In this document: one piece after another, positions 894-54,800 of the stretch
How the letters are laid out: each line of letters opens with the position of its first letter
Position numbering within the stretch: the first letter of the stretch is position 1
Assembly: GCF_004010195.1 (NCBI RefSeq)
Contig: NC_057719.1
Coordinates: 46,262,021-46,326,020 of the forward strand
Direction: 5' to 3'
Origin: Chiloscyllium plagiosum
Lineage: Eukaryota
DNA length: 64,000 nt
Position numbers and translations under genes: made by a program
Notes under the pieces: generated by a model
The model's database searches: none
What the model saw: only the letters and a program-made list of their open reading frames with translations
What the model was told of the DNA's origin: nothing

Positions 894-1113
894 ATATTGC
901 ATCTGTCTTCACTGGAGAATCTACGTATAACATTCAGAAATAACTGCAAAGCAAGAGCTGAAGTGGGCTGTAAAAGGGATACACGTCAAAGAATTACAAT
1001 CACTAGTATAAGGGTATTGAGGAGAAAGTGAGGTCTGCAGATGCTGGAGATCAAAGTTGAAACTTTATTGCTGGAACAGCACAGCAGGTCAGGCAGCATC
1101 CAGGGAACAGAAG

Positions 1114-1149
1114 ATTCGACGTTTCGGGCACAGGCCCTTCTTCAGGAAT
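1114..1149 (-). ncRNA. Minimal type I hammerhead ribozyme motif in the PLE left arm
   Basis: Minus strand reads AUUC-CUGAAGA-A-GGGC-CUGU-GCCC-GAAA-CG-UC-GAAU. Confidence 0.8.
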
Positions 1150-1390
1150 GAGCAGAGTGTTCAGCAGGAGAAGATAAAAGGTAGGGAGGAGGGACTTGGA
1201 GGAGGGGCGTTGGAAATGTGATAGGTGGAAAGAGGTCAAGGTGAGGGTGATCGGTCAGAGTAGGATGGAGGGCACCGTCGACCACGTCGGGGGGGAAATT
1301 GCGGTCCTTGAAGAAGGAGGCCATCTGTGTTGTACGTATCCTCCACTTCCCGCTAGTGCCCTCCACCGCATCTCCTCCACTTCCCGCTAG

Positions 1391-2138
1391 TGCCCTCCAC
1401 CGCATCTCCTCCACTTCCCGCTCCTCCGCCCTTGAGCCCCGCCCCTCCAACCGCCACCAGGACAGAACCCCACTGGTCCTCACCTACCACCCCACCAATC
1501 TCCATGTACAGCGCATCATCCGCCGTCACTTCCGCCACCTCCAAACAGACCCCAGCACCAAGGATATATTTCCCTCCCCTCCCCTATCAGCTGTCCGTAG
1601 AGACCACTCCCTCCGCGACTCCCTTGTCAGATCCACACCCCCCACCGACCCAACCACCACTCCCGGCACCTTCCCTTGCAACCGCAGGAGGTGCAACACT
1701 TGCGCCCACACCTCCCCCCTCACTTCTCTCCAAGGCCCCAAAGGAAACTTCCATATCCGCCACAGATTCACCTGCACCTCCACCCACATCATCTACTGCA
1801 TCCGCTGCAGCCGGTGTGGCCTCCTCTATATTGGGGAGACAGGCCGCCTACTCGCGGAGCGACTCAGAGAGCACCTCTGGGCCACCCGGACGAACCAACC
1901 CAACCAACCTGTAGCACAGCATCTCAACTCCCCCTCCCACTCCACCGAGGATATGCAGGTCATTGGACTCATCCACCGCCAAACCACAACAACCCGACGG
2001 TCGGAGGAGGAGCGTCTTATCTTCCGACTGGGAACCCTCCAACCACAGGGGATGAACTTGGACTTCAACAGTTTCTTCACCCCCCCTCCCCCCACCTTGT
2101 CTCACCCGGATCCCTCCAGCCCGGCACCGCCTTCCTGA
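1391..2138 (+). pseudogene. C-terminal part of the PLE ORF (Cys-rich linker plus GIY-YIG endonuclease), still open
   Basis: PLVLTYHP...CNRRRCNTC...IIYCIRCSRCGLLYIGETGR...RLREH...VAQHLN...EERLIFRLGTLQPQGMN. Confidence 0.88.
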
Positions 2139-2289
2139 CCTGCAGTCTTCTTCTTGACCTCTCCGCCTCCATCCTACTCCGACCCAACACCCACACCTTG
2201 ACCTCTTTCCACCTATCACATTTCCAACGCCCCTCCTCCAAGTCCCTCCTCCCTACCTTTTATCTTCTCCTGCTGAACACTCTCTGCTC

Positions 2290-2325
2290 ATTCCTGAAGA
2301 AGGGCCTGTGCCCGAAACGTCGAAT
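2290..2325 (+). ncRNA. Minimal type I hammerhead ribozyme motif in the PLE right arm
   Basis: ATTC-CTGAAGA-A-GGGC-CTGT-GCCC-GAAA-CG-TC-GAAT: stem I ATTC/GAAT, stem II GGGC/GCCC, palindromic ACGT in place of stem III; predicted cut after C2321. Confidence 0.82.
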
Positions 2326-5300
2326 CTCCTGTTCCCTGGATGCTGCCTGACCTGCTGTGCTGTTCCAGCAATAAAGTTTCAACTATAAGGGTATTGAGTA
2401 AATTTATGGAAATAAAGGCTGATAACTCCCTAGGTCCTGATGGATCTCATCCTAGGGTCTTAAAAAAGTAAGTGATTGTTGAGACAATGGATGCATTATT
2501 GTAAATTTTCAAAAATCCACTGATTTTGGAAACTTTCCATTAGATTGGAAAACAAACTTCTCTATTCAAGTAAAAATGGAGACAGAATACATGAAACTGT
2601 AGACAAGTTAGCTTAACATCTGTCATAGGGAAAATGCTAGTCTTTATTCAGGAGGTTATAATAGGGCTCTTAGAAAATCTTAATGCAATTTGGCAGAATC
2701 ATGCAACTAATTTGAAAGGCAAATGGAATGTTGGTGTTTACTGCGAAGCGAATGGAACATAAAAGTATGGAAAATGTTGCTGCAGCTGGATAGGGGCATG
2801 ATGAGATCACATCTGGAGTACTGAGTAGTTTCAGTCTTCTTATTTGAAAAAGGATATAATTGTGTTATGCAGAGATCAGAGGGTTTCTTTGACTTATTTC
2901 GTGGGATGAACAGCTTATCCTATGAATTCATGTTGGAAAAAAAAGGGGCATATATTGATTAGAGTTTAAAGTTTTAGGAAATCCTATTGAAACATTGAGC
3001 ATCCTAAATGGCCTCGATAAGACAACAGCCGGAGGCTGTTTACCGGCGGGTGGGAATCTAGAACGAGGGGTATCAGTTTAAAAATAATAGATCTACCTTC
3101 TAACAGAGAGATGAGATTTTTCTTCTCTCTGGAGGCTTGTCAGTTTGAGGAATTTTCTTCCCTCGAAAGCACTGAAGGCTGTTATTGAATTTAGTCAAGG
3201 CAGAGTTCCTTTTTTTTTGATAGGCACGAGTGAGGATTATGGTGGCAGACAAGAAAATGGAATGAGACCATAATTAAACAAGTCTCCAGAGAGGTTGAAT
3301 GGTGGAGCTGGCTCGAAGTGCTGAATGGCCAACATCTGCTCCTACGTCCAATGAGTTAACAATTTTGTGAAAGGAAAATCTTGTTGGAACGCTTTAGTGC
3401 AATTCTTTGAGGAGGCAACACAACATTGATAAAATGGAACCTGTAGATATGATATACAGGGATTTCCAAAAAGCTTTAGGTGAGTTCAGTGTTGTGTCTC
3501 AACTATTTACAATCAGTATATTTAATGACTTGGATGAAGGGACCAAATGTACAGTTGCTAAATTTTCTGATGACACAATGATAGGTAGGAGATTGAATTA
3601 TGGGGAGGCCATAAGGACTCTGAAATGTACACGGAGAGCTTGAGTGGGCAAAAACGTTGACAGATGGAGTACAAGGTTGGAAAATATGAACTTGTCCACT
3701 CTTCAGGAGCAATAGGAAAGCTGTATATTATTTAAATGAAGAGAGACTACAGAACTCTGGTATATAGGGAGCTGAGTGCCCTGATAAAGGGATTAGAGTT
3801 AGTCTGCATGTACAGCAAATAATTAGGAAGGGCAAATGCAATGTTATTGATTGAAAGGAGAATGTTTTGCTACAGTTGTTAACAGATATGATGAAACAAA
3901 ATCTGGTGTAATATGTACAATTTTGTTTTCATTTAAAATATGAAATTGCATTTGAAACAGTGCAGAAAAGATTTACTCAGTGGATTCCTGACATGAAAGA
4001 TTCTCTTATGAGGAAAGATGAGGCAGATTGAGCTTGTACCAATCGGAGTTTAGAAGAACGAGTGGTGATCTTATTGAAATATGCAAGCTCCTGAGGGAAC
4101 TGAACAAGGTGGATGTGTCGCTATTTGGAATAGACTAGGACTAGGGAATACAGTTTAAATATAAGTGGTCTGCCATTTAAGACAGAAATGCCCTTAAGAA
4201 TTGTTAGTCAGTGGGACCTCTTCCCCAGAGACTAGTGAAGGTTGGATCATTTAATATGAGTTAACTGTCTTAACTGACAATGAAATCAAGAAGTTTAGCA
4301 ATTAGATATGAAAGTAGAAGCTACAATCAGGTCAGCATTGATCTTATTTAATGGCTGAGCAGGCTAGAAGAGTTTAATGGTCCACCCTGGTTTTAAACTT
4401 GTAGGTTTATATTAATAAATCATCCTGTTAATTGAAATATACAAATAATCATATCTCCCACACTAAAAAGTGTTATATTACAGTAATAAAACCGCTTGAT
4501 ATCAATAATCACTATACCCCTTTTCTGCCAAACTTATACGTACCAAAAATTCCAAAGTAGTCCAAAGTTACAAAAAATTATTCAGCAATAAACAAAATGA
4601 CCAGATTAAAATTAAATCCCATGTTGTGATTATTAAAATGTCAAAGGCAAACTTTGAGCGGGAGTTGAATCTCTAATAATATATTTTCCTCCAATTTTTT
4701 AGGATGATTGCTTTTCAAAAGTGTACATTTGAAATCATACATCAATTCATATAATTCAGAAATGTTAGCCTCTTGAATTCTGAGTGGAATTCTGAAGACA
4801 ATAATAAAGTTCAAATAGAAATTATTTCTGTTGTTATTCAATTCTTCAGCTATATAGTTAACAATGTGCTTCTGTGAAAAACTGAAAATGAAGTTTAATC
4901 TCATACAGGAAGGAATTAGCCCATTCTGAACTGAGAGGATAGAGTGTGGGATCGATTGTTCTACTTGGCAGCTTTCACGGACTTCATGATTTCATTCTCA
5001 AGCTCATGAGTTGGCAACCAGACAGAATTTTCAATACGGCAATGAATCTCAATGAAATGAATAATCACATTAATTATATTTCTAATAAAAACTTCCCAAA
5101 AAAAACAAAATATTGCTTCAAAAACATTTCACACATCAGATATGTATAGGTATATGCCTTTTAATGTTAAGTACTTTATTTTGAACATTGCTAATTTCCA
5201 GCTGTTGTGTACATTTCAATGATTTACATCCAGTGAGTGAATGGAGTTGGATCATTTAAGATTAAATTTTCAACGGACTCAAAGATGATAATCCACTATT

Positions 5301-6344
5301 CTGGTTTATGATTTTCACTGAAGAAACTGTTTTATTTTGGTGTGCAGAACTCATTTTCTAAAGTTATATCTAGCTCACCTCAAACATTAAATTGGAGTTT
5401 TCAATAAAAGAATGTTTTTACTTTTGTAATACTTTATATCATAAATAAATGCTTTACTCTAATTGTTAGCATACTGTATTTATTCATTCTGACGTTGGAG
5501 GAAACATCCCCCTCTTCTGGTAATATTTATAATACAGATTTTGAGAAACAAAGGTTTCTTGAAAGACTGAAGGCATCATGAAATTTCCTGCCGGATGAAT
5601 AGATCATAATTGGGTGGGTCAAATCTTGACAGAACCTCAACCCATCAAAACATTTAGTGGCATTGAGGATATTGATTTTACTGGTCAGGGTTTAAAACAT
5701 ATTCTTTCACTGACAAGGCCAGAATTTACTTATTTCTACTTGGCCTTGAGGTGGTTGAGAGCCACTTTCTTCAATGGCTGCAGTTTGTCTGATATTCGTC
5801 CTATTTGTAAGGATGGAGTACCAGGAGTTTGCTCCAGCACCAATGAAGGAGTGACAATGTAGTTAGGGCCGAGTGAGTGGCTTGCTGGGGAACTCGCAAG
5901 TGGTGGTGTTTCGCACATATTCACTATCCTTATCCTTCTAGGTGGTAGAGATCACAGATGTGGAAGGTGCAATCAAAGGAGCTTGAAGTATGTTTTGTAC
6001 GGGCACTACTGCTACCAGAGTTTGTAGCAAATGCGTTGAATGTTTAATGCAGATGTGTGCTTTACTGAAAATGTTCACGGCCATCTTATCTCTTACAGGG
6101 AAAAAAAACAAACCTTTGGCTTGAATTTGCTATTCATGGTGAGACACCAGCACATACCTGAATAGGTTCAATGGCATTTCGGACTGGAACCTGCAGTGAT
6201 TCCAGAGCTATCTGGCACAGTCCCTCTACAGGGAATCTTAGAATTTTATGAATTGGTCAAGCAATAATGCATTTCCTTAAACAATTAAATTGAAGATTAT
6301 TAATAAAATGCACAATCTGAACCAAAGGGGTAAATATTAGGGGT

Positions 6345-6435
6345 TCTCAATGTCCCTACCTTTGAGCCAAGAGGTCCAAGTTCAAGTCCGATCTGCTCCA
6401 GAGGTGTGTAATAACATTTCTGAACAGGTTGATGT
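6345..6435 (+). mobile_element. Short tRNA-like SINE fragment; a related copy lies at 49563-49650 on the minus strand
   Basis: B-box-like aagttcaagtcc followed by ctgctccagaggtgtg...tgaacaggttgat, shared in reverse with the 49563-49650 copy. Confidence 0.5.
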
Positions 6436-8848: not shown

Positions 8849-9645
8849 TTTATTGACAAAAAAAATGCAAAGCACTAAGAGAATGACATTGCAATGTCTT
8901 CTGCACTATATAATAGGCAAAAGTGAGGACCGCAGATACTGGAAACCAGAGTTTAGATCAGCATGGTGCTGGAAAAACACAGCAGGTCAGGCAGCATCTG
9001 AGGAGCCGTGGATGCTGCCTGATCTGCTGCACTTTTCCAGCACCACACTGATCTAAACCCTGCACTATACAACAGCACAGTGAAGCAAAACAGTTGTGGC
9101 AAAATTTAAAAAAATACACAAATCAACAAAAAAGTGAAAAACTTTGTATTAACATAAGTATAAGCACCAAACTTCTTTTTTTATACTTCAAATGTGTAAA
9201 CAGTTCATTGTTAGCCACACTGACTAGCTGTAAGATATCACTGGAGATATAAAGTGCAAACTTCATGTCAACATTCTTAGGAGGTTATACTAGTACAAAA
9301 CATTATTAGTATCTGGATATGGTTTGCACATTTGAAACATAAATAAAAATTAAAGTTTATAACATTATAAGCTCCAGCCTCAATGTTAGTATTAACCTTA
9401 GTTTGCCATAATTGTAAAGAAGTATTTTACATATTTATTATACAGTGAATAATGACAACTTGTTAAAGAGTAGGAAAAGAACAGGTTTGACTCTAATCTG
9501 AGTACTTTATTTAGAAATAGGTTGCTCGTACTTCCAATATTCATTGTGGATTTTAGAAAATAAATAAAAAACACAAACAAAGCTGCGATTCCCTTTGTTT
9601 TCATTGCACTTTAAGCAGGAGTAACAACAGTCTCTATACAGTTCG
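8849..9645 (-). promoter_or_regulatory. Putative DDHD1 3'UTR with candidate AATAAA signals at 9511-9506, 9439-9434 and 8854-8849
   Basis: Follows the stop codon; U-rich on the minus strand. The true 3' end cannot be determined and may lie further out. Confidence 0.5.
8916..9059. mobile_element. PLE-derived fold-back mini-element
   Basis: 48-bp inverted arms 8951-8998 / 9011-9058 (6 mismatches), 35-nt unpaired tail, TSD ctgcactatataata 8901-8915 / ctgcactatacaaca 9060-9074. Confidence 0.85.
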
Positions 9646-15800: not shown

Positions 15801-18800
15801 TACAGAAGGCTGACTGTATTAATTGTAGCAACTTCCAAGAAACACTGCTTGTTTTGCAATTAAGATTTACTTTATATTGACTTTTCATTACTTTAGGATG
15901 TCTTAAACCAATTAAGAGCTTTTGAATGAGTGTCATGATTGTCCCTTTTTGAATGAGTGTCATGATTGTTGGAAAGGAAAACACTGACTTCAGAGATCCA
16001 TGATGTGGAGGAGCCGGTGTTGGACTGAGGTGGACAAAGTTAAAAACCAAAGCACCAGGTTATAGTCCAATACATTTATTTGTAAGCACTAGCTTTTGGA
16101 GTGCTGCACCTTCATCAAGTAGTTGTGGAGTAGGACTATAAGACAGAATTTACAGCAAAAGATTACGATGTCATGCAACTGAAATGATATATTGAACATA
16201 CCTAGATTGCTGTTAAGTCTTCCACCTTTTAGAATGGGTTGCAGGTTTCAGTTCATTAATAATTAAATCCCAGAACTTCTTTTAAATCACATTCAAGATG
16301 ACTCGAGGCTTTATTAAAAAAAAAGTGACATCTCAGCTCAGTCAATGAACTAAAGGTGTGAGGTTAGAGTCTGTCTGTATCCCACTCTTGAGTCAGACTG
16401 GCTTTACTCCCAAAGTGGAATTTACAAAATATTACTTGGCCACCTTTGACAACCAGTTCTTCATCCAGACACATGGAACAGCCTTGGGGACCAAATCTGC
16501 ACCCCAATATGCCAACATTTTCATGCACAAGTTTGAATAAGGCTTCTTAGCTGCGCAGAATCTCCAACCAACACTATATACCAGATATACTGATAGCATT
16601 TTCTTCCTTTGGACCCATTGTGAGGAGTCACTGAAACAATTACACAATGTTATCAACGAATTTCATCCCACCATCAGACTTACCATGGACTACTCTTTAG
16701 TATCCCTCATTCTTTGGCATATGCACCTCCACCAAGGTTGGACACCTCAGCACCACACTCCACCGCAAACCCACAGATAACTTCACAATGCTACACTTCT
16801 CTAGCTTCCACTATAAACATTAAAACAACCATCCCCTACGCATACACATGATCTGTTCAAATGAGAAGGAACATTATGGACACCTGGTTTCAAGGATGCC
16901 CTCATAAGACACGGTACAATGCTCAACTCACTGATTGCCCGATCTGACATGCCACAGCTAGAAACCGTAATGACATCCTCAGGAAACAGACATGGGTTGC
17001 AACCGATAGGGTACCCTTTGTTGTCCAGTATTTCCCAAGAGCCAAAAAACTGCGCCATGTTCTTCCCGGCCTACAATACATTATCAATGAGGATGAGCAC
17101 CTCGCCAAAATCTTCCCTATGCCTCCACTTCTCGCCTTTAAACAACCGCCAAACCTTAAACAGACCATTGTTCACAGCACACTGCCCAGCCTTCAGGACA
17201 ACATTGACCACAACACTGTACAACCCTGTCATAGCAACCACTGCAAGATGTGTCAGAGTGCCGACACGGATACCACCATTACACATGGGGACATGATTCA
17301 CTATTTATGCAGCAGGTACTCATGTGACTCGGCCAATGTTGTCTATCTCGTATGCTGCAGACAAGGATGCCGAGGCATGGTACATTGGTGAGACCAAGCA
17401 GACTCGACCACAACAGATGAATGGACACTGTGCAACAATCACCAGACTGTGGCATTCACTCCCAGTCAGGGAACACTTGAGCAGTCTGGGACATTTGGCC
17501 TCGGATCTTCAGGTGACCATCCTCCAAGGCGAACTTTGGGATAGGCAACAATGCAAAGTGGCCAAGCAGAGGCTGATAACGAAGTTCAGAACCGATGAAA
17601 ATGGCCTCAACCGGGACCTTGGGTTCATGTCACACTACAGGTGACCCCACTACACTATACACTCTCTAACACATACACAAGCACACATACACACAATCTT
17701 ACATATTCTCACACTCTTACAGACCCTCTGTCATACACACGCACACCCCTTCACAGGCTGATACTCCATCACACACACACCCAGTTTACCAAACTTGCAA
17801 ACACACTCACTCTCACGTGCACACACACACACACACTCTCTTTCTTATGCACGCGCAGACACAAGTCTATGGGGTGAATTTGTATTTGCGGAATTATATT
17901 TGTAGATTCATTCTATTTTGCTCAAAACATGCACAACCTGCAGGCAGTCAATCCATGTAATATTTTATAAATTTCACTTTGGAAATAGAACCAGTCTGAC
18001 TCAAGATTGGGATACAGACTCTAACCTCACACCTTTAATGCATTTGCTGAGCTGAGGTGCCACCTTTTTTAAATAAAACCTTAAGTTATCTCAAGAATGT
18101 GACTTAATAGTAGTTCTGGGATTTACATACTAATGAAGCGAAACCTGCAACCCATTCCAAAAGATGAAAGACTTAACAACAATCTAAGTTTGTTCAATAT
18201 ATATTTTCAGATGCATGATACTGCAATCTTTTGCTATAAATTCTGTCTTATGGCCCTGCTGCACATCTACATGAAGCAGTGCTCCGAAAGATAGTGCTTC
18301 CAAATAAAACTGTTGGAATATAACTTGTTGTGTGATTTTTAACCTCAGCGATCCAGTGATCACCTGACCAGGCTGAGCCAAGCTCATGATACAATCAGTA
18401 AACAAGAGAGAGTCAAAACTGAAATTAAAATACTAAACTGACTGAAACCAGTTGCTTAGATCTGCATCTCCCGTTGGATTTTTGTATTATTGAAAGATTC
18501 GTCTGCAGATAATCCACCTTGTGAGAAACAGAAGGCAGACACAGGAATATACAAATTAATTATATTTCAAACAGCTGCTTTTGGGAAGAGCAGAGAGAAA
18601 GGAAATGGATTTGTAATAGCAGGCATGGAACAGAAGGTATGCTGTCTCTCCATGCCTCTCAAAAGACAGTGCCTGTGATAGAACAAATCAGAAAAACACC
18701 CATTTACGATAATGCAAATATAATTACAAATATCATTATGATGAGGATACAAGTCATCAATTAAAACAGTGGTCTCTGATTAAACCTAACATCTGGAGGA

Positions 18801-36800: not shown

Positions 36801-39800
36801 TGACAAGTAATTTGATCAATTAAATAATAAAATAAAGACTTTCAGGAACATTGTTTATAAAAGAATGGAATGCTTATTAATTTACACTAGTATTCAATTA
36901 GCCCTATTTCTCATTGCTTGAAGATTATTTTTGACCAGAGTCACAGATGTACTGGTCATTCTACTATAACGCAACAGGTGAGTTCTTCTGTAACCTCATA
37001 CTATAGAAAACAGCTATAGAAAATCGCGCTGTAGAAGACTGCCAACAGAAAAGCGTTATACCTATTAAGTAGAAATTTGATGTTATCCAAACAACATTCA
37101 CAATTCGTCAATCCCATTCTAGCCAATTCATGCTGACGAAACACGCATTATAGCAGAATGACCTGTACAACATGGAAACAGACCCTTCGGTCCAACTCAT
37201 CCATGCTGACCAGATAGCCCAAATTAATCTAGTCCCATTTTCCAGCACTTGGCGCACATCTCTCTAAACCCTTCATATTCATGTATCCATCTTGATGCCT
37301 TTTAAATCTTGTAATTGCACCAGCGTCTACAACATCCTCTGGCAGATCAATCCATTCACGCACTATCCTCTGCATGAAAAAGTTGTCCCTTAGGTCCTTT
37401 TTAAATCTTTCCCCTCTCACTCTCAACGTATGCCCTCTAGTTTTGGACTCTTGCATCTCAGGGAAAAGACCTTGTCCATTTATCCAATCCATGCCCCTCA
37501 ATTTTATAAACCTCTGTAAGGTCACCCCTCAACCTCCAACGCTCTGGGGAAAAAACGCAACCTATTCAACCTCTTCCTATAGCTCAAGTCCTCCAATCCT
37601 GGCAATATTCTTGAAAATCTTTCCTTTCAACATCTTTCCTGTAGCAGAGAGATCAGAATTGCACTCCAAAAATGTCCTAATGAATGTCCTGTACAGCTTC
37701 AATATGATCTCCCAACTTCTATACTCAATGTGTTGACCAATAAAGGAAAGCATATCAAACGCCTTCTTCAATATCCTATCTATCTGCAACTCCACTTTCA
37801 AGGAACTATGAACGTTCACTACAAGGTCTCTCTTCGTTCAGCAAAACTCCCCAGAACCTTACAAGTGCCTAATTTGCCTTTACAAAATGCAGCACCTCAC
37901 ACTTATCTAAATTAAACTCCACCTGCCACTCCTTGGCCCATTGGCCAAAAAATAAGGTTGCTTATAAGGTGCAAAATCCCCAAACCAATGGTGTTAATCA
38001 TAGCAGCATGAAATCATTTGGTTTGAGCCTGGCATGGTGAAAGTGGGATTGCAGTGCACTGGTGTACCAAACTGTCAATTAGATTGTATGAAGTCATACA
38101 GCAAGAAAAAAGACCTTTCGGTCCAAATCATCCATGTCAACCAGACACCACAATCTGACCTAGACACATTTGCCAGCATTTGGCGCATATCCCTCTAAAT
38201 CCTTTCTATTCATATTCCCAAGCAGATACCTTTTAAATGATAGCCACCACCACCACTTCCTCTGGCTGTTTGTTCTATACATGCACCCCCACCCTGTGAG
38301 AAAAAGTCACCCCTCAGGTCCTTTTTAAAATTTTCCCCTCTCACCTTAAATCTACACCCTCTAGACTCCCCCACCCTAAGGGGGAAAAAAAAGACCTTGG
38401 CTATTCACCCTATCCATGTCTCTCATGATTTTATAAACCTCCAAAAGGTCACCCTTTGGGTTGACGCTCCAGGGAAAAAATGCCCCAGCCCACTCAGCCT
38501 CTCCCTAGAGCTCAAACCATCCTCTTGCTTAATTCTCCAGCAGATCTAAAATTTGCAAATCTACGAAATGACAGTTTTTTTTTAAGTCTGTAAACTCACT
38601 TCTAATAGCAGTAGTAGATTTTGCATTCAATTTTATTCAGTTTTATGAACTATGAATGCAAGTCGTAAAATCATACACATTTCATTTCAACACACATCTA
38701 CAAAATGCCATTATCCAAAGGGTAACCCTGTTTACATTTAATTACCCCCATCCAGGCATAGCTTCGATCTCCACTCCACAGGCAGAAACTCAACATATTC
38801 CAAATTTGTGGCATAAGGAAAGTGTTTTTCTTCAACCTTCCTTGCAGCTTCTCTCATCCTATCAAGTAGGAAAGAAATAATCTTCTGTGAGGGTTATTTC
38901 TAATAAATCTTAGAAATAAAATAGTACATTTTGCAATAAATATAAAACAAGAACTGGGGATGCTGGAGAGCTGAAACACAAGCAGAAATTCATCAGCTCT
39001 GGCAGCATCTGTGGGAAGAAAGCAGTATTAGTATTTAGAATATGGTGCCTCTTCATCAGACTTGAGAGACTGGACTCAGTGTAGTATAATGCTGCGCTCT
39101 TCCCGTAAATGCTGCCAGACCTGCTGAGTTTATCCAGCAATTTCAGATCAGCTGTAGTTGCAGTTTAACATTTTTACTTTTAACCTTTGTTAGGTTTAAT
39201 AAGGAAAAATAAGTTGAATTGCATGGCATTGAACGGTATTCCTTCAACATTAGCTTAACAAGTGTTTAAAAAAAACTAAACCACAAAGAAAATTTCAAAA
39301 GCAGTATACAAGTTATGTTTCAATTGATTAATACAAGTCTGTAAAAATCTGACTGAAGTTCCTTCAGAGTGACTATTTAACAGCCAATAATCGAAGTTTA
39401 CAAAAAAATTGTGCAATTCTGTTTGATTAATTATGGTTTCCTACAAGTCAACTTCTGCACAAATATTGTTTGCAGAAAACATATGCTACGGTATATTAAC
39501 TTAGATTAATACTTTCTGAATCCAGAAACAAAATTGTTGCAAACTAAACTCTCAGTTCTAATCCTTCACAGAGATCGGGTGTGAGAAATAAACTGTCCTC
39601 CTGCTGTCAAAATATGCCTACTTTTTTCCTCAAATACTTTGAGCAACTTGAGGTACCATTTTATTTCGTTTGAGATGAGCATGGTAGACAAATAATTAAA
39701 AAAAAAACAATTTCCCTTTGTAAAATGGCAATCCTAAGTGGGTACTAAATCTGGAATAATTTAGAATCAGAGTCCTGACGTGTGGAAGCAGGCCATTCAG

Positions 39801-42800
39801 TCTTGGGTCCACAATGGCCTTCCAAAGAGCATCCCACACAAACCCACCCCCTACCCCATCCCTGTAACCCTTTATTTCCCATGGCTAATCTACCTAGCCT
39901 GCACATCCCTAGATATTATGGGCAATTTAGCATGGTCAAGCCACCTAATCTACACACCTAATCTAGATTGTGGGAAGAAACCCACGACTGTCTCATGAGA
40001 CAGTCAGTCAGTCTCCTGAGGCTGGAATTGAACCCTGAGGCAGCAGTACCAAGCACTGAGCCACCATGCCACACTCGCAACCAAGAAACCTTGGAGTAAC
40101 CAAGAAAAAGCAGTTTTTAATTTCCTGTTTCTGGATGCTTTGGAAGAAGGTCAGAATGTATTTCTATGAAAGTCCGTTTCATTTTCAAAGCCAACAACTA
40201 CAGAAGCCTGTGCCAAATTTCCCTTTCATAGAACCTAGGTGTCACTGGCAAGGCAGCATCTGTTACCTAGCTCTAATTGCCCCTGAATGGTTTGCAAGCT
40301 ATTTCAGAGGACAGTTAAGAGACAGCTGCATTGCCATGGGTCACAGTCACACATGGTCAAACCAGATAAAGATGGCAGATTTCCTTCCCAAAGGACATTA
40401 ATAAACCCAATGGGTTTTATGACAATTGATGATGGATGGCATGATCATGACAACAAGCTTTATCTTCCAGATTTATTAATAGAATTTAAATTCCATCTGT
40501 CTTGGTAATACTTGAACCCATATTGCAAGATTTCTGTTAATGTCACCAGACTAGAAATCTATTGTGCCATCACAATGCTCTAAAGTTAGCAAGTACATTA
40601 GATTGTCTTCTGCAAGTTGACTGCGGTTTAAAATTTACATTAAGTGAACAAGTATGTGAGACACATATACAGAGCTTACTGTATTTTTTTTGTTTGCTCA
40701 CCTGCCTCATAGAAATAAAGAATTTTCTGGTCAAATGGCAGCATTTATACAAGATATATATCCAATTCACCTCTGAATGTGTCCCGAGTTCCTCAGGATA
40801 CACTAAGCAAAGTACAAAGAAGAGTTCTCTTTCATAATTTCTTGGTCATGCTACTGTTCGTCTAGGTACTGGGCATTGTAGGAACCATAATTTTCATTTA
40901 TACCTTAGTGATTGGTGAGAATAAGCCAGAGAAAATGACAAGTGTAACCCAAAAGCACCATGTGATTTAACATATTGCTATCTTTGTAACTAATAGACTG
41001 CAGTTTTTTCAACGGAAGTGACCAAGAAGTTTTGTTGGGAACTCAGCATAAATAATGTTCAGGGCAGATCGGACCATGTTTTCTGATGTACAAGGTATTA
41101 TGATGGAACCACAGTGAAAACTAAAATGATTGCAAAGTAACCACAATACTTTACGATAACAGCTGATACACTGAATGGATGCCATCAACTTCTCAGAAAA
41201 GATATTTGTTTCTGAAAGCAGGAAGGTACTTTGTAACATAAAGACTGTTTTAATGGATTGTAATCAGATATATCCCAGGCTCATTGATCTAAACGGTCCT
41301 GTCATGGAGAAAAGCGGAGATCCATCCCTCACTAAACCTTGTATTTTTTCCTCAGAGGTTTTATCAAAAATTAAATGTTTTTGTTACAAACATTTTACAT
41401 AGTTTAATACAAAGAAGTTCTGTAACATTTGCATGATAAACACTTAGCAACACTAAGCGCATTAAACAACTAACGTACAAGGATTGTTTTAGTAAACTGT
41501 ATAACTAGATCATTATAGTGCTAGGAGACTAATCATTTACTGGATAGGTCTATAAAATTTGGACCGAAAACCACACAGATAAAATACTTGATAGTGTAAT
41601 ATGCAAACATAGCACTACAATCTACAGTGGTAGGGGTAGGATTATAATACAGATCATTCACCCAACAGATACACAGCAACGTCTATACTCCACTAAAAAC
41701 AACTGAAATCATCTATATTCTCTTTTCGCTCATTTACTTTCCGAAAGCTTATCAGTACTATTTGCTTCAATGACTCTCTATGGCAGAAAGTTTCACATTC
41801 TTACCACTCTTCAGAGGTTTTTTCTGAATTTCCAATTCTCTAATAGAAATCTCAGTGATTCTTGTATCAATGGCCTCTACTAAGCTCTTCCCCAGACATT
41901 GACTCTGCATTCACCCTATCAAAATCTTTCCTAACTTTAAACATCTGTACTTAGTCACCCCTCGGTCTTTTTCTTTCAAGTGAAAAGAAATACAGTTTGC
42001 CAATCCTTTCCTGTGTTGTGGTCAGAGGGCTTGAAGGAGAAATCCCAGAAAACATTTTCTTCTCTTGCATTTGCTTCTGCAGTTTTGTATTTAAATTTAT
42101 TATTTCTTAAATGCTGAGGCTGATACCATAATCAGAAACTTCTAGAAGTATGAACTTGATTGTTTAGATATTTCAACTAGAGCTAACACAAAGCCCTTGC
42201 AGACAAGCCTCCAGTCAGGAGGAAATCATCAAATTGCACTATAATAAAATTGACTCTAATGCTTTTCAGTTACCTCCTCACCATACAAGCAATTCTTTGG
42301 AGGAAGGCAAAGCTACACTGTTAGGTTAAAGTTCTGCCAATTAGCCCACTGAGGTGGGCCACTTGAAAGGCCCTTTTTTGTCACACTGACTGGAATAGGA
42401 GTTTGTTTAAATGCTCATAGGTACAATTACCTGGGTTCAAATCTTACCACAGCAGATGGTGGAATTTGAATCCAACAACAAAATCTTGAATTAAAAATCT
42501 ACAACCACCCATGAAACCATTATCGGACGTCAGAAAAACCCACCTAACGCCCTAATGTTGTTCAGGGAAGAAAATCAGCTGTCTTTATCCGGCCTGGCTA
42601 CATGTAACTCCAGACCCATAGCAATGTGATTGACTAGGAGAAAGTGAGGACTGCAGATGCTGGAGATCAGAGCTGAAAATGTGTGGCTGGAAAAGCGCAG
42701 GAGGTCAGGCAGCATCCAAGGAGCAGGAGAATCGCGTTTCAGGCATGAGAAGAAGGGCTCATGCCCGAAACATCGATTCTCCTGCTCCTTGGATGCTACC

Positions 42801-45800
42801 TGACCTGCTGCGCTTTTCCAGCAACACATTCTCAGCAATGTGGTTGACTCTCAACTACCTTTTATAATGGCCTAACAAACCACTCAATCACTACAAAGTC
42901 TCAACAAAGAAATTAAACTGGACGGACCAGCTAGCATCAACATTAACACTAGAAAAGACATCAGCAAAAACAGCCCTATCAACCCTTAAAAGTCTTCCTT
43001 AGTAACATGTGGGGGCTAGTGCCAAAATTGGGAGAGTTATCCCTCAAACTAGTCAAGCAAGAGCTTGACATCATCATACTCATGGAATCATACCTTAATG
43101 TCCCAGACATCATCACCACTGGATATGATCTCACCTAGTTCACGCCTTGTGCAATGTAGCCTGTATGCCTCTAAGTCTTTTTGATCTGCTTGTAAACAAA
43201 GCTTTTCACTGTACCTCTTCATGAAGTGAAAAGTGGGGATTTTTACCAATGCTTGGCACTGAACATTGTGTATTCATGACTCCTCAGAAACTACAGCAGT
43301 CCGTGTTTAAATGCAATAATATTCGGTCAATATATAGGCTTAGCCTTACAAGTGGCAAGTAACATTCATGCCAAGCAATGACCATCTCCAGTAAGAGACA
43401 AACAAATGCCCTTTATCATTCAATTGTGCTACCTTCACTGAATTTTCCTCACTAGCAACATCATTGGGAGTTACCACTGACCAGAAATACAACTGCGCTT
43501 GCCACAAACACGTCACTACAAGAGCAGGTCACAGGCTAGGAATACTGCAATGCGTAACTCACCGCCTGATCCCTCAAAACCTGTTTCAGTCTAAAAGGCA
43601 CAAGTTAGGAGTGCGATGCAATACTGCCCACTTGCCTGGATGAGTGAAGCTCCTATAATACTTCAAAGCTTGACAACATCCAGGACAAAGCAGCCCAGTT
43701 GATTGGCACCACATCCACAAACATTGACTCACTCCATCACCAATGCTCAATAGTAGCTGTGTACTATTTACAAGATGCACTGCAGAAATTCACCAAAGAT
43801 CCTTAGACAGAAGCACAAACACTAATCTAAGATGACAGGGCAAAAGATACATGGGAACAGCACCCCCTACAAGTTCCCTCCAAGCCACTCACCATCCTGA
43901 CTGGCAAATAGATGACTTTCTTCACTGTCACTGGGTCAAAATCCCAAGGGTTTTGAGGGTCAACCTATAGCAGATGAACTGCAGAGGTTCAAGAAGGTAG
44001 CTCACCAAAATGTTTGGGGATATATCAAAATCAAAATACATGCCAAAAATATAGGTAAAAACAATGACTGCAGATGCTGGAAACCAGATTTTGGATTAGT
44101 GGTGCTGGAAAAGCACAGCAGTTCAGACAGCATCTGAGGAGCAGTAAAATCGACGTTTCGGGCAAAAGCCCTTCATCAGGAATACCCTTCAGGCACTCTG
44201 ACTGTATTCCTGATGAAGGGCTTTTGCCCGAAACGTCGATTTTACTGCTCTAAAAATATAGGGCCTAGTGAGAGTGAGGAACTGAAGGAAATCAATATTA
44301 ATAATGAAGTGCTGTTAGAGAAACTGATGAGATTAAAGGTCGATAAAAACCCCAGGGCCTGATAATATACATCCCAGAGTACATCAGGAAATGACCCTAG
44401 AAGTAGCAGGTGCACAAGTGGTTACCTTTCAAGATTCTATAGACTCTGGAACATTTCCCATGGATTGGCAGGTAGCTAATGACAAAAATGGAGGTGTAGA
44501 GAAAACAGGAATTACAGATCAGTTAGCCTGACATCAGTAGTGGGAAAATTGCCAGCAATTATTATAAAAGATATTAGAGCAAAACACTTTAAAGACAGAA
44601 TTGGACAGAGTCAGCATGAATTTACGAAAGGGAAATCATGCTTGACAATCTACTGGAATTTTGAAAGGATGTAATCATTTGAGTTGATAAAGGGGAATGT
44701 GGTTTACTTGGACTTTCAGAAGGCTTTCAATAAGATCTCATATAAAATTTAAGCATTTGAGATTCGGGGTAGTATGCTAACATGAGAGAGTATTAGTTGG
44801 CAGATAGACTACAACAAGTAGGTATAAGCAGGTTTATTTCGGAGTGACACATGATGTCCAGTAAGTATCAGTACTTGGACTCCAGTCACTTACAATATGT
44901 ATTAATGATTTAGATGAGGGAACTAAATGGTAATACCTCAAAGTTTGTAGATGATACGAAGCTAGGTGGGAGGGAAAACTATGGGGAGAATGCAGAGATG
45001 CTTCAGTGTGGTTTTGACAATTTTATTGAGTGAGCAAAAGCATGGCAGATGGCGTATAAAATGGATAAATGGGAGATTCATTTTGCAAAATTATTCACAT
45101 CACATTAATAGATGGGCACTGATTATGATGGAGGACAAATTGGCTGTTCTGTTTTGAACTGTTGTGTAATGTTAGTAAAAAGGAGGCAGATTATTATCTG
45201 AAAAGCAATGATTAGGAAAGGGAAAAGTGCTTCAAGACCTGATTGTGCATGTACACCAGTCATTGAAAATAATCACGAAAGTGCAGCAGGCATTGAAAGC
45301 AAGTGGTACAACACTGTTCACAGCAAGAAAAGCCTTGCTGCATGCACCTGGAATATTACGTGCAGTCTTGGTTCCATTATCTGAAGAATGACATTCTGGT
45401 TGTGGAGGGAACACAACAAAGGCTTACCAGACTGATTTCCTGGAATGGCAGGATTGATGTAAGAAGAAAGATCGGTCAGGACTATATTCACTGGAGTTCA
45501 GGAGAATGGGAAGGGATCGCATGGAAACGATAAAATTCCAACATAATTAGACAAGGTAAACACAGGATGGATGTTTCAGATGACTAGGGGGTCCAGTTCA
45601 AGGATACAGGGTAGTCCACGTAAGCCTGAGAGGAGGAGAAATCGCTTCACCTAGAGAATGAAGAGCCTGTGGAATTCTCTGCTAAAGACAGCTGTTGAGG
45701 GAAAAACATTGAATGTTTTCATGAAGTTAAATGGGCTTAGGTTAGTCCACAGGTGCACACAACATCGAGGGCCGAAGGGCCTGTTCTGTGTTGTATTGTT

Positions 45801-48800: not shown

Positions 48801-51800
48801 AGTGAAGACTCTTCTACATATCCTCTATGAAGTCTAGTTCCACTACTTGATGCTGCATTGACAAAAAACACATTCTTGTGTATAAACAGATGTATGCATA
48901 GTTGCAACATTGAGAAATTTGGCATGTAAAACAAAGAAGCATTTTGCAAACAACAAAGTTGTATGGTAACTATGTCAAATTTTAAGTGGTAAAATTACTC
49001 TACAAATCTGGCAAATTATGCATACTTTGAAAAAAATCGATTCAGTAAAACACCATTAAAAAAGTTCTGATCTATTTAATTTCTAAAATTTCTTCCCTTC
49101 TGCATTTTCCCAATGTTGTCTGTAGCAGTAGAACATCTTATGATTTCACTGGAAGGCTAGATAATATGATGTGCCTTCATGAGATCGACAATGCATTTCC
49201 TGGGTTATGCACTTCAAAATGTTAGAGCAATGCCTTTCCAACAATGTGCCTTTGGTGTTCATGCTACTGATCTTCAGTGAAATCACACTAGTCAGAAGAG
49301 GTCTGAATCTCACCTGATTTCAATGGGATTTCTAACAAATTGTTAATTATAAGACAGCCAATTCATATAAAAAAAACTCTAAGCTGCTGTGCCTCAATTT
49401 TCCAGTACATTCATTATTTCTATCAAAACAGACCAATAGATCTAATGCCTCTATTATGCCACATTGAACTGTTACAATATCATTTGTGATAGTTCATCAA
49501 TAAACACCATGAATTTTTTTTCTGGATAGACCAAATTTTTTTAAAAGTTTAACCTGGTTTTCTAATCAACCTGTTCAGGGATGTTTTGCACACCTCTGGA
49601 GTAGCTGGGATTTGAGTTCAAGGCTGAGCCCAGGGGTAGGGACACTACGCACAAGAGGGTATGCAGGAAGAGAGTTTGGATTGAGGTTGCAGGTACTGTA
49701 ATTCACTACCAACTGAACAGCTTAGGCTAGAAACAGTTAAGTTGATGAATCCAGCCAGCGTTTAGCTTTATAACTTACATTTGCAAAATGATATATCATC
49801 AATACAAAAATCATATGTCATCATACTAATATTACAGGTACTGTTTGACTCAAGTTTGAGTATGACACACGGTAAAAATATTAATTGCAAACTAGGTATA
49901 ATGAAATAGACAGCAGTCATGCAAAATGCTTTTGAGAACAGTACCTTTAGAAAATCCCAACTTCTGGGTAACTGTTCTGGCAATTTTGGATGTGGTTGCG
50001 TCACTGTACAGGTAAACTTCATCCACACTATACCAGTCCACATGGTTGCGTCTGAGCTTTAAACTATGTATAGCTGCGGCCAATAAACACTTCATATGTT
50101 AATAAAACACAGGACACAGATTTATCTGCTCACTATAAAGCTGGCACGTAGAACATTTAGCTTTTTTATACTGAGAAAAGCGTTCAAAATGCATGAAGTG
50201 ATTAAGTGACAATTCAAATCTAGAAGTTTATTAGTAAATAAAATAGACAAGGAGGAGCACTACATGAATTGTTAAATACTTCCAGGTTTCTTGCACAATT
50301 AAATTGCTTTGTTCTTCAGCAGTTTCGTGGCTGATGGGAGCAAAGTCAGATAACAGAACAAAAACAAATCTGAAAAACAGACCAGTCACAGCCACATAAC
50401 TAATCCTCTACATACTGTACACATACAAAACTCATTGTGGATGTGCTTGGTGGTGGTATGGGATCGACAAATTAAGACTGAAGAGACAAAAGTCTCTTGC
50501 AGTAGAACACCATAATTTACAGACAAGTAATGAATATGTCGCAAATAAGTTACTGATGACAACTTGTGCAAAGGAAGTGTGTTTCAGTACATAATGGAGC
50601 TGTCTAATTCTTTCAAAGCCTTAATGATAGCATAAAATGTCTATCTGTTCAGTCAGTTTACAAGACCAGCCATAAACAAATTCCAACTTAATAGTATCAG
50701 TAACGTTGACCAATTATAAACATTCCTGGATGAACAGTTCATGATGTGCAACTCTTAATTTCAGTAATTTACTTGCTAATTCTATAATCCTGTAGCAAAG
50801 TTAGTATTGATGATTTAAACATGCACTAAAAGCCAAACTGCATGCATTAATCTATCTGGCAGCCACAACTCCCTAAAGGTTGCAAATAAGGCACATTAAA
50901 TAATGATTTTACCCAGGTTTTCTATGGACACTTCTAATGAAAGAGTGGGGAAATAATTCAAATTCAAGAACAATCTTACTCTGGGTACCACTGCAGATTC
51001 AAGTCAGGAGAGAGTAAATGCAACTTGAAAAGCTCTTCTAATCAATAACAAAGCTGTTACAGAGTAATCGGTACTATACCTTGGCAATACTTTCTTTTGT
51101 TACATGCAGTGTCAGTACTTTCCTTAAAGCGTCTCCATTTGAACAGAAAAGGAAGGTAGAAGGGAGGGAATTGGTAAAAGACTAACAAAGTAATAAAAGT
51201 GAGCTTCATGGATTTTGTGATAATTCAAATGATCTTCACAGTAAGGTCTCAAAATCAAAATATATTCTGCGCTTTCTGGTAATTAAAATGTTCTACTTCC
51301 ACCATATTGGTGAACCTGTGTAGTATTCCTGATTTAATTCTAAGGAAGTCATTAAAATATTAAATACAAATTATATCTTGCCTACAAATGAGAAGAGACA
51401 CAATTTGACATTTGCTTCATAATCGATAATATTTGACTTTTTAACACCTATTCTAATAGCATAATGTCATCACATTACGATTTTAATTATGCAATTTCCA
51501 CCAAAAGTCCAGACACATTTTTAACAAGTTATACAATTGTTAATATCAGAATTCCATTAGTCTCAGCTTTTTAAAATAAAATGCAGCAAGAAATCAGATA
51601 ATCAGCACACCAATGGCTCAAATTTGAAATAAAAACACATCATTTACCTCCATTTCAAATTCTGAAAATAGCTGTTGTTTAAAGGAAGGTAATTCAACAG
51701 CTTCTTACTCAAAACCAGAATGAGTGAATAAAATTCAAATGCTTGACAAAAAGTACTAGCCTGTTCAGTTAGAATACTTTATTTAAGGTTATCCAATTAC

Positions 51801-54800
51801 TCAGTATTTTCTTTCAATTTCAACAGCAGCCAGGCCTCCAGACATAAACCTTCGCTTCTGCCCGTTTTGTTCATCTCAAATGGAAAAAATAACCACAAGT
51901 CTCGGAATACAATCAATTTAATGACTGTCAGCGAAAGCGATTTGAAAAACAGAATACCAAGTATTAAGATTGACTATCTCCTCATCCCAAAAACCAACTT
52001 ATATGACTTTTCACCTTTTATGGTTTCCTAGGTTCACATTTTTATACATTCAGAAGATAGGCAGTGACTTCAAAGAAAGACAATTTCTTTGAATGACATA
52101 TCAGACCATTGATGACTAGAAAAAAATTGTATTAATTTGGCTTGAACCTGCTCATCTCAGTTTTAAATTAATTGCTCTTCACTTGAAATTCTGTCCCCTT
52201 TCAGCCAAGTCATTTTGACAATTTTTATCTAATTGATAAATCAGAAGAAACTAGATTTTACAACTTGAGACCAATACAAGTATAGATGACTGAGTAATTC
52301 TTCTCCACCCCATAAATGCCTGCCATATTCAATTAATTGTAATAGGTTATTCCCTATTTGCAATAACTTACAGGTCCATAGCACTTTGTGTTCCTCTCTT
52401 CCCAATTCAACAGCTTCAAGGTAGGCTACTACAGAAGTAACCTTAATTAAAACCTTAACGTTTGTGGAATGATCAAGGAGAGTCTGGTTTTGCATATTTG
52501 CTGCTTATCAAATAGAATCTATCAGTGGGGGATCTTTTAATAGATCACCTTTCTTGCACTGGATTTAAATTTCTCTTTTGGTTTCCAGACCTTTTGTGAT
52601 AAGGAAAGAAACAGGATCAACGTAATCCGTTCAGCTACTGCCCCAGAATACTCTCAATCATCAGCAAGCAGCACTTATGTAGCAATAGCCAAGCTTAGTA
52701 TGGATTCCATCAGGATAACTTCACTCCAGACCTCATTACAGCCTTGATCTTAATGGGGCAAATTCTAGAGGTGAGGGGAGAATGAATGCCTTCAACATCA
52801 AAAAGACTGTTCATTAAGTGTTGCGTCAAGGAGTCCAAGTAAACGTGATATCAATAAAAATCAGGCTGTTTGAAGCGATAGGGCATATTGATGTGGTTAA
52901 TGCAGACTAATAATTTCATCTCAAAGTATCCCAAAAGGAGTTGTTTAGGGCAATGGCTAAGACTGCATCAACAGTCTTCTTTTCAACAAAAGATTAGAAG
53001 TGGGGATTTTCGTATCGGTTGCAAGTCCGCATAATAACCCTCATTACAAGCATGTCTTTGAATGTCAACCACTGATGGCTAGACATTTCCCTGCCAAATT
53101 CCCCCCACTCAGCATTCTGAGACTCACCAATGACCAGAGGTATAACGGGCCAAGGCATAGAAACAGTGTGGCTATAAGTGGAGGTCAGAAGTTAAGTATT
53201 TGGTGATGACTTCCTAAAATCTAGCCACCATATTTAAGGCACATATTTGAAGTGTCATGCAACGCTCACTTGCTGAACAAATATAACTCCAACAATAATC
53301 GAGAAACTTGACACAATTCAGTTCAAAGCAGCCACATTGGTTCACAACCCATCTATCCCCATAACCATTCACTTGCTGTACCATTAAGTATAATCTACAA
53401 GTGGCACTGCAGCAACTTGCCAAGTATTCTTCATCAATACATTTGAAGTCTGCTGCCTAAAAAAACAAGAACAGCGGGTGCATTGAAACATGAATTAAGT
53501 TGCTTTCTCTCCAAGTTACAAATGCTGACTAGGAAATACAACCTTTGTTTTTCAATGTCGATATTAAAAATCCTAGAACTCCCTCAACAGTACTATGAAA
53601 GTATCTTCACATATGACTGCAGTACATATGAAAGTTTGTTCATCACCCCATTATGAAGGGCTTTTACGAATGGGCAAAAAAAAAAGGCTTGTATTGTCAG
53701 TGAAGCCCAAATTTCATGAATAAATTTTTAAAAATTATTAGCAAGTCACATTTATGCATTGTATACCAGCTGGATGAATCTTCCATTACAAGTGTCACTT
53801 TCTCATATTTTGTGTGACCACCCATTTTTGAGGTGGTCATTTTGTACTTGCCTGCTGCTTTGTCCTATGTTTTTCATTTTATGCTAATGCACACTCCTCC
53901 TGTTCCAACATCCTGGGCAGCACCCCGCTTCATGTGTTTCACCAGCAAAACTTAACTCCCACTCTTATAGCACTTCATGTTAATATCCCTTACTTTTTGT
54001 TCCTGGAGAATTGGTCACTTTTTTACTCAAGATACTTCATTTTAATCATTTGCATAACACTGAATTTTGGCTAGATAACCTGTTGGATGAAGTGCCCTCT
54101 GGCTTGGCACACTATAAATGGAGCTGGAAAAGCCGCTATTCCAGATGAAGGACTTTTGCCTGAAATGTTGATTTTCCTGCTCCTCGGATGCTGCCTGACC
54201 TGCTGTGCTTTTCCAGCACCACTCTGATCTAAAACTGATTTCCAGCATCTGCAGTCCTCACTTTTGCCACATTACAAATGGAGTCAGTAATTTAAGAAAA
54301 AAAAGCATTTAAAAAACTAATTCGCTTTTTAAGCAGTGATCTGCATACTGGAATCCCAAATGATTCTATATTGCTTTCCAGACAAGTTGCATTTTTTTCT
54401 TATTGTTAAAGCCAATCCACTCATGGTTTAAAGGAATGTCCCAAGCAGTTACTGCTTTCCATCAGCATGTAGTGCCTCTGTCCAATCTGAAATTCAATTG
54501 TTGATTTTCAGAAAGATAACTTATGGCATTATTTGTACATCAACACTAATTAATTGTCTATTTTGCTGTGTTCAAAATTCTTCATTTTGTTTATTACTTC
54601 ACCAACCATCTCCCTCTTAATTTCCTTCCCTAGCTCTTGCAAGGTGTCAACAGAAGTTGAGATATGAATACATTGAGATATTGGAGGGTTAGAAACAAAC
54701 AAGTGACCAGACTATATAAGCCTAAGCAGACTAGCGGAGAACTATAACTGAACCTTTTGAAAACCTAGAGACACTGATGTTATTTGAAGCATCCTTACAA

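Follow-up and report, generated by a model that had tools for sequence, protein, structure and literature searches.

Fold-back insertions of Neptune-type Penelope-like elements in the shark Chiloscyllium plagiosum and a two-site priming model for their origin

A 64-kb stretch of the Chiloscyllium plagiosum genome (the window) carries 10 insertions of Penelope-like elements (PLEs): six are clearly two-armed, one has an arm and a stub, and three are single-armed. The fold-back anatomy, the family identity, the target-site duplications (TSDs), a fixed stop of the short arm and inner junctions that differ between copies are all observed in the shark DNA. We consider it probable that such fold-backs are 5′-truncated insertions of Neptune-type PLEs that arise by two-site, two-strand priming on the element RNA, followed by joining of the two cDNAs.

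Inventory and identity of the insertions

All six insertions listed in the initial annotation (E1 to E6) are present (Table 1). The fold-back plan that it ascribed to each of them is true in five, E6 being one arm with a 10-nt stub. The older fold-back E7, for which we searched for a TSD and found none, was absent from that list, as were the three single-arm relatives, which have no partner in the window. None of the 10 copies is a direct pseudo-LTR tandem. The inverted 77-nt pair at 45084/46707 sits among LINE fragments and is unrelated to the Penelope fold-backs.

Table 1 Coordinates of the fold-back insertions and their parts (positions in the window)
Feature	Position	Strand	Remarks
E1 left TSD copy	1007..1021	.	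15/15 with 2384-2398; inside decayed CR1-like LINE ORF2
E1 inverted arm, family A 3′ end	1022..1271	-	tail 1022-1055; putative hammerhead core at 1145
E1 inverted internal ORF piece	1272..1338	-	encodes residues just upstream of sense-arm start
34-nt tandem duplication at E1 junction	1339..1422	+	2.5 copies
E1 sense arm without tail	1389..2383	+	C-terminal ORF remnant (CX4CX2C linker, GIY-YIG with internal CxxC, stop at 2138), then 3′ pseudo-LTR; putative hammerhead core at 2294
E1 right TSD copy	2384..2398	.	right flank aligns to LINE ORF2 proteins
E2 hairpin, 144 bp	8916..9059	.	tailed arm 8916-9006 on minus strand, tail-less arm on plus strand up to 9059; TSD 8901-8915 / 9060-9074
E3 inverted arm, family B	16001..16439	-	38-nt tail 16001-16038; TSD 15989-16000 / 18344-18355
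E3 sense arm	16440..18343	+	broken RT C-half, CX4CX2C linker, GIY-YIG remnant, tail-less 3′ end
E7, older family A-like fold-back	38944..39151 (approx.)	.	73% arm match
E4 hairpin, 198 bp	42636..42833	.	tail 36-39 nt; TSD 42620-42635 / 42834-42849
E5 fold-back, 196 bp	44056..44251	.	arms 44139-44185 / 44204-44250; two putative hammerhead cores; 82-83 nt unpaired; TSD 44045-44055 / 44252-44262
E6	54124..54268	+	single tailed arm 54134-54268; TSD 54109-54123 / 54269-54283
E6 inverted stub, 10 nt	54124-54133		random window 10-mer does the same in 0.17% of draws

TSDs of 11-16 bp, as claimed, were found at all six insertions E1 to E6. The two copies match at 15/15 positions in E1, 13/15 in E2, 10/12 in E3 (12/14 counting two ambiguous bases), 15/16 in E4, 11/11 in E5 and 13/15 in E6. 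When the identical search was run on 1000 random position pairs, 15 matched the lowest element TSD score (8) and 7 scored at least 10. The arms of one copy are 97% identical over 219 nt in E1, 87% over 52 in E2, 81% over 403 in E3, 94% over 63 in E4 and 100% over 47 in E5.

The annotated PLE identity was confirmed, and two families are represented by the ORF remnants of E1 (family A) and E3 (family B). Judged by sequence, the insertions are 5′-truncated Neptune-type EN+ PLEs; the clade is read from the linker motif, which is common to Nematis. The E1 ORF remnant matches GIY-YIG with an E value of 1.4e-4 and 22.5 bits, just under the curated cut-off of 22.6. It is 61-70% identical to three shark proteins and 39-49% to RT-bearing relatives. 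Performing tblastn with E3, we find 23-35% identity to family A-like proteins, with both the RT and EN parts matched. E1 contains no RT, and E3 contains a broken half. The EN of E1 reads IYCIRCSRCGLLYIG, with two cysteines between GIY and YIG and histidines downstream that give a CCHH motif; E3 has a degenerate equivalent. The CX2-5CxxC linker between RT and EN is CNRRRCNTC in E1 and CHSNHCKMC in E3. The CCHH motif belongs to the definition of EN+ PLEs, and the linker to that of the Neptune clade (PMC8557442). An intact element or RNA of either family was not seen.

A putative hammerhead core with stem II is present in the E1 and E5 arms, and 6 of the 13 motif matches in the window fall in family A arms. 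Rfam gave no hammerhead among its 11 weak matches in the window; 7 of these 11 were microRNA models, lying on E2, E4 and E5.

The unpaired tail, the E1 junction and same-species reads

A tail is present on exactly one arm in 7/7 two-armed copies, counting the E6 stub copy. Its unpaired length is 33-34 nt in E1, 34-35 in E2 (31 when the element is taken to include three shared bases), 38 in E3, 36-39 in E4, 82-83 in E5 and 52 in E6. The offsets of 33, 35, 38 and 35 nt annotated for four of the six thus need one correction, E4 being 36-39 and not 35; the four do lie within 33-39. By chance, 4/6 offsets would share an 8-nt window with a probability of 0.006-0.074, according to the range assumed, and 5/7, with E7 added, with one of 0.0006-0.016. 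The short arms of E1, E4, E7 and E2 stop at positions 104-107 of one profile, and both families have AAC followed by TTTG at the stop site, as seen in E1 and E3. This template position, shared across copies, supports the annotated fixed stop of the short arm. E5 and E6, two of the seven two-armed copies with the stub included, do not end there.

At six short-arm junctions, a tentative target-template microhomology totals 7-12 nt according to how mismatches are read (chance 0.19-0.009). RNA structure around both ends gave z-scores of -0.45 to -1.41 in four arms, with no support beyond the putative hammerhead stem, and 0/20 base pairs in this region showed compensatory change. A self-cleaved RNA end as the setter of hairpin arm length was rejected, since the predicted hammerhead cut site is not where the arms terminate.

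E1 turned out to be a three-piece insert, not the two-piece one initially described. Its match to P0001 runs over residues 201-224 on the minus strand and from 221 onward on the plus strand. The antisense ORF piece (1272-1338) occurs nowhere else in E1 and abuts the 5′ end of the sense arm. With no template inside the insert, it implies that the top strand would have copied template beyond the insert, and by its sequence the piece appears to be explained only by top-strand priming. Opposite-strand joints from 1266-1276 to 1390-1400 occur in thousands of reads. At 5/5 listed positions at which 69-84% of the reads disagree with E1, its two arms share the minority letter.

Two classes of end find support in same-species reads. 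At the E1 outer end (1020/1021), 16,954 + 8,524 reads end in X19 and 16,948 + 8,251 in X20; the flanks beyond are unrelated, with an agreement of 0.33-0.34. Read depth is 97,000 at 1077 versus 57,322 at 1056. The second clip class lies at 1068/1069 (31,409 reads in X19), and its consensus resembles the element over about 13-19 letters before fading out. Tailed arms from diverged subfamilies contribute to this class as well, and it gives no offset histogram. No raw-read fold-back joint inside 1056-1250 is found among the 15 best-supported joints listed, 1076 further joints being less supported. The read flanks carry a weak 16-bp quasi-palindromic target with a hint of RGY on each strand. Neither viral nor metagenome contigs contained a match to a family A motif (0 in each).

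Empty sites were compared for two insertions. A paralogous empty site of E4 (40284-40389) carries one TSD copy. The left flank of E1 is itself a repeat; contigs of two related organisms align to it and appear to stop at 1021. Against six LINE proteins, the one-copy version of the E1 site was better in three and the two-copy version in three.

How the fold-backs may form

In the mechanism that we favor, the RT-GIY-YIG protein would nick both target strands 11-16 bp apart, and each freed target end would prime reverse transcription of the element RNA. Two start sites, spaced by about 35 nt, would lie downstream of the putative hammerhead; one target end would use the outer site and the other the inner. 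Both cDNAs would usually stop early, and joining of the truncated ends would leave a TSD around two inverted 3′ ends, of which one is tailed. The short hairpins would be cases in which both cDNAs stopped within about 50-140 nt. The two start sites, and the cutting and extension of both strands, are known from the literature on another clade; the shark copies show what may be their genomic footprint. We infer that, within one event and on one RNA molecule, each strand uses a different site. The annotated view that inversion is the normal outcome agrees with 6-7 of the 10 window copies and is compatible with the reads; two of seven two-armed copies are off the fixed site. These two copies (E5 and E6) count against the two-site model, as do the 3/10 single-arm copies and the near-equal arm ends of the small hairpins, which self-priming explains equally well. 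The short arm of E2, closer to E6 (44/48) than to its own partner (42/48), and the lack of a start-site difference between strands in PMC11167929 also weigh against it.

Alternatively, the target-primed cDNA may fold back, or an antisense template may self-prime, so that the first arm serves as template for the second; the tail would be left when the endonuclease resolves this intermediate about 35 nt short of the end. We regard this as unlikely but worth weighing. Earlier proposals include palindromes at inverted junctions as self-primers (PMC3846280) and a tail left by EN-mediated resolution (PMC8557442), and such a route likewise yields a tail on exactly one arm. It would suit E2, E4 and E5, whose two arms reach almost the same point of the template, and the finding that arms within a copy are more alike than arms of different copies in 3/4 cases. 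It is at odds with E1 and E3, in which the tail-less arm exceeds the tailed one by 0.8-1.5 kb, with the untemplated E1 piece, and with RT start sites that match both tail ends in vitro (PMC11167929).

An origin after insertion, by a second copy landing in or beside the first or by a longer unit collapsing through deletion or gene conversion, is improbable. New PLE insertions tend to be adjacent to older ones (PMC6765202), and the contig joints of one relative run from internal positions to the outer end, their orientation not being given. However, in 6/6 insertions both arms lie within one TSD pair, which speaks against such assembly; a TSD-like duplication looked for at the inner junctions was not seen, and the fixed short-arm stop would be left unexplained.

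Amplification of the short hairpins as a MITE family, from a single master and by a DNA transposase, is the least credible origin and largely refuted: the short hairpins are MITE-like in being 144-208 bp long, hairpin-forming, non-coding and very numerous (terminal read depth is about 5-9 times ORF depth), but they lack symmetric TIRs reaching both ends (33-83 nt are unpaired at one end), a uniform size (inserts span 144-2343 bp), a common inner junction (all differ) and a fixed TSD (11-16 bp), and the same ends flank RT-EN remnants. With these differing junctions, and no dominant one among the read joints listed as a single MITE-like master would give, the annotated reading of the hairpins as retrotransposition products and not DNA-transposon derivatives is upheld.

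Relation to known systems and meaning

In L1 twin priming, the second target strand primes cDNA and an inversion arises inside one TSD pair, the two cDNAs covering different parts of the RNA. The internal inverted piece of E1 resembles this; unlike L1, both shark arms cover the same 3′ end.

The standard PLE plan combines an inverted, 5′-truncated copy, a one-ended tail of 30-40 bp and a TSD (PMC8557442, PMC3846280, PMC8969392). The suggestion of an under-described system was therefore not borne out, the two start sites having been demonstrated in vitro too. The Neptune clade shares this plan with the shark copies, together with an RT followed by a C-terminal GIY-YIG with CxxC inside the motif, and a CX2-5CxxC linker upstream; it also has a hammerhead motif near the 3′ end, where the shark arms carry the putative core. 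The shark families seem most often to yield very short, ORF-less hairpins of two arms. Pen2a_Av and Pen2_Av of Adineta vaga (PMC3846280) have inverted pLTRs within one TSD (9-10 bp), a 31-bp tail on one pLTR and an inverted copy 37 bp shorter; unlike the shark copies, they have full ORFs, few copies and a shorter TSD, and they were explained by self-priming.

PMC11167929, on Poseidon_Ac (PAc) of Anolis carolinensis, describes two in vitro RT start sites that are the tail ends, with both target strands cut and extended and a dimer predicted. Both sites are internal to the RNA there, whereas the initial annotation placed one of them at the RNA 3′ end. Like the shark families, PAc has a 30-40 nt tail between two fixed positions downstream of a hammerhead, putative in the shark, and AT-rich targets. 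It differs in belonging to the Penelope/Poseidon clade, in lacking the linker motif and in its preferred cut, ATT versus the hint of RGY in shark flanks. The start site does not differ between strands in that account, so the use of one site per strand is not predicted by it alone; the main-text parts covered do not discuss inverted genomic copies or one-site-per-strand use. The formation of PLE inversions is named as an unresolved step in PMC8557442 and PMC11167929.

The architecture is already described for PLEs, and the window alone adds little; what is unusually large in the shark is the copy number. The additions made here are small, namely the one-sided tail in every two-armed copy, the E1 internal piece and the weak 16-bp target. 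Annotators may mistake such hairpins for microRNA precursors, the model type of 7/11 weak Rfam matches (on E2, E4 and E5), or for MITEs. The value lies in the material: shark genomes seem rich in short TSD-flanked PLE fold-backs, which would allow statistical testing of the origin of the inversions. Tentatively, PLE integration may be a coupled, two-ended process. A dimer would cut a quasi-palindromic 16-bp RGY-N10-ACT target, its subunits would sit at the two start sites of one RNA, and each insertion would receive one tailed and one tail-less arm; in sharks, direct retrotransposition would thereby have produced some ~100,000 MITE-like hairpin arms. If this is true, the two known start sites become the explanation of PLE inversions.

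Anatomy and identity of the insertions

The initial annotation placed six fold-back Penelope insertions (E1 to E6) in this window, and all six were confirmed at those places. Five showed clear inverted arms (inverted copies of the element 3′ end). For E6, the second arm is just a 10-nt stub, and random 10-mers from the window match as well in 0.17% of draws. Each insertion is arranged with its 3′ ends on the outside and its truncated 5′ ends facing each other at the centre. In the same search for target-site duplications (TSDs), 15 of 1000 random position pairs matched the lowest score among the elements. An unpaired tail of 33-38 nt had been claimed for four of the six; in E1 to E4 it measures 33-39 nt, and E5 and E6 have longer tails. 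The tail-length ranges reflect bases compatible with both target and element.

Features of the window (window positions)
Feature	Position	Strand	TSD identity	Tail (nt)	Remark
E1	1022-2383		15/15	33-34	family A
E1 tailed 3′ end	1022-1271	minus
E1 internal ORF piece	1272-1338	minus			encodes P0001 residues 201-224
E1 34-nt tandem duplication	1339-1422				2.5 copies
E2	8916-9059		13/15	34-35
Single arm	12805-12857	minus			old, family A-like, no partner arm
E3	16001-18343		10/12	38	family B
Broken LINE	25582-28154	minus			RT and ALKBH8_N domains; presumably Rex1/Babar-like
19-bp perfect minisatellite	29354-30421				56.2 copies, 100% matches
Single arm	31940-32054	minus			as 12805-12857; degenerate hammerhead core kept
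E7, older family A-like fold-back	38944-39151				arms 73% complementary; short arm ends at same template site
E4	42636-42833		15/16	36-39
E5	44056-44251		11/11	82-83
Inverted pair of a 77-nt sequence	45084-45159 and 46634-46707				82%; among CR1-like LINE fragments
E6	54124-54268		13/15	52
Candidate host exon	59307-59753	minus			translation resembles DDHD1 phospholipase; presumed host exon
Single arm	60675-60763	minus			as 12805-12857; degenerate hammerhead core kept

A search of the window with a family A end profile gave 14 arms (E ≤ 0.1). They belong to E1, E2, E4, E5, E6, the old fold-back E7 and three single arms. The family B profile found two arms, both within E3. The window thus holds 10 insertions, six two-armed, one with a stub and three single. 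A TSD was looked for at E7 and none was found.

Among named proteins, those nearest to the E1 protein remnant come from sharks and rays (50-70% identity), and we accordingly treat the host as a shark. The Penelope identity was correct: by the linker and GIY-YIG endonuclease definitions in PMC8557442, the elements are of Neptune/Nematis type, not Penelope/Poseidon. In the family A arms, a candidate hammerhead core precedes the short end by about 60 nt; an Rfam search called no hammerhead there. Short type I motifs of this kind are reported from the pseudo-LTRs (pLTRs) of Penelope-like elements (PLEs) in PMC6765202.

Stop sites, genomic reads and target sequence

Exactly one arm is tailed in seven of seven two-armed copies, which at equal odds per arm has a chance of 0.5^7 = 0.008 (0.03 for the five canonical copies). 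In E1 and E3, it is the short inverted arm that bears the tail, and the ORF arm has none. The short-arm ends of E1, E2, E4 and E7 fall at positions 104-107 of the family A profile, a tighter clustering than that of the offsets. For the offsets, the chance of clustering is 0.006-0.074 (four of six) or 0.0006-0.016 (five of seven), varying with the assumed range. The stop sites of E1 (1056) and E3 (16039) share the letters AAC then TTTG; the proteins of families A and B are 23-35% alike.

The data aligned to 880-2165 at 80% likeness came from 4 of the 21 runs listed: two raw-read runs labelled as the same species (X19 and X20) and two sets of contigs from related organisms. X19 depth was 0.4-1.6 in the flank, 57,322 at 1056, 97,000 at 1077 and about 11,000-19,000 across most of the ORF. 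Taking contig totals as a stand-in for genome size (2.2-3.0 billion letters in that organism's best runs, with 1,934 million letters read), this depth suggests roughly 100,000-150,000 arms in the genome. Among the 24 loose-end rows listed (5,480 more), a sharp outer end appears at 1020/1021, where 25,478 (X19) and 25,199 (X20) reads exit the element into unrelated sequence, with an agreement of 0.33-0.34. Reads of a second class exit at 1068/1069 (31,409 in X19 and 29,901 in X20) with an agreement near 0.5, the flank having about 13-19 nt of element-like letters and then fading. This class would fit tail-less arms that end near 1050-1058, mixed with tailed arms of diverged subfamilies.

All seven flank consensuses listed for 1020/1021, from three organisms and counted by eye, have ACT at -3..-1 and GGC, GAC, GGT or AGT at -16..-14, the remaining sequence being A/T-rich. 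As a lead, these flanks form a weak quasi-palindrome spanning the TSD length. The ACT could be element-derived; the -16..-14 triplet cannot. The form is present in the E4 TSD and fits the other window TSDs poorly. A paralog of the repeat interrupted by E4 can be aligned across the insertion site with no gap at the junction if a single TSD copy is retained (score 50); with two copies, a 16-nt gap is required (score 36). The equivalent comparison for E1, against six LINE proteins, was split, three favouring one TSD copy and three favouring two.

Origin of the inversion

We consider it probable that nicks in both target strands supply the primers for reverse transcription, with one strand's cDNA beginning at the outer start site and the other's at the inner, and that joining of the truncated cDNAs would yield the insertion. 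E1 is built of three pieces (tailed 3′ end, internal piece and sense arm), and the sense arm begins at residue 221 of the protein P0001. Since the internal piece encodes residues just upstream of this start, the top strand reads as cDNA begun at the outer end, which switched template and then copied RNA immediately upstream of the other cDNA's stop. An opposite-strand joint from 1266 to 1400 is found in reads from other copies (2,191 in X19). The inverted internal piece resembles the outcome of twin priming in L1 elements. Against two-strand priming count E5 and E6, which are not at the inner site, and the three single-arm copies. Tests of target-template microhomology at the window insertions and of RNA structure in the arms gave nothing firm. 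A coupled model, with one RNA, two start sites and a quasi-palindromic target, is offered tentatively.

Fold-back or self-priming with endonuclease resolution fits the small hairpins; we consider it unlikely, being at odds with the long tail-less arms and with E1, where, in this one copy, a simple fold-back is unable to supply the internal-piece sequence. Rearrangement after insertion fits poorly and is improbable. Least probable is MITE amplification: the raw-read-supported joints among 15 listed (1,076 more) are E1's own rearrangement, the stretch end or 3′-UTR variants, with no hairpin junction inside 1056-1250, which disfavours a MITE-like master. The earlier view that the short hairpins are not DNA-transposon derivatives is supported.

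Published relatives and genomic surroundings

The insertions are real, correctly identified and mostly known; the proposal of an under-described system is not supported in view of four papers. PMC8557442 describes a unit often flanked by an inverted 5′-truncated copy, with a 30-40 bp tail often at one end only. PMC3846280 reports inverted pLTRs within 8-10 bp TSDs and a 31-bp tail, and proposes self-priming. The curation guide PMC8969392 lists short extensions and inverted pLTRs. In PMC11167929, an anole protein, predicted to be a dimer, cuts and extends both strands and has two internal RT start sites, the tail being the sequence between them; no start-site difference was found between strands. 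Our literature search found no shark description, no target consensus and no rule that one site per strand gives inversion; older Penelope-structure papers and the supplementary figures of PMC11167929 may contain them.

The inverted 77-nt pair is unrelated to the PLE ends. Two LINE RT proteins, P0023 and P0024, are 76% and 53% identical to a CR1-like fragment of the window; they have bacterial names and are encoded on contigs of 1.7-3 kb, which are likely animal DNA within those assemblies. A Pfam search of the candidate host exon's translation found nothing significant. If this is indeed an exon, the insertions may lie in introns, with the potential to give double-stranded RNA.
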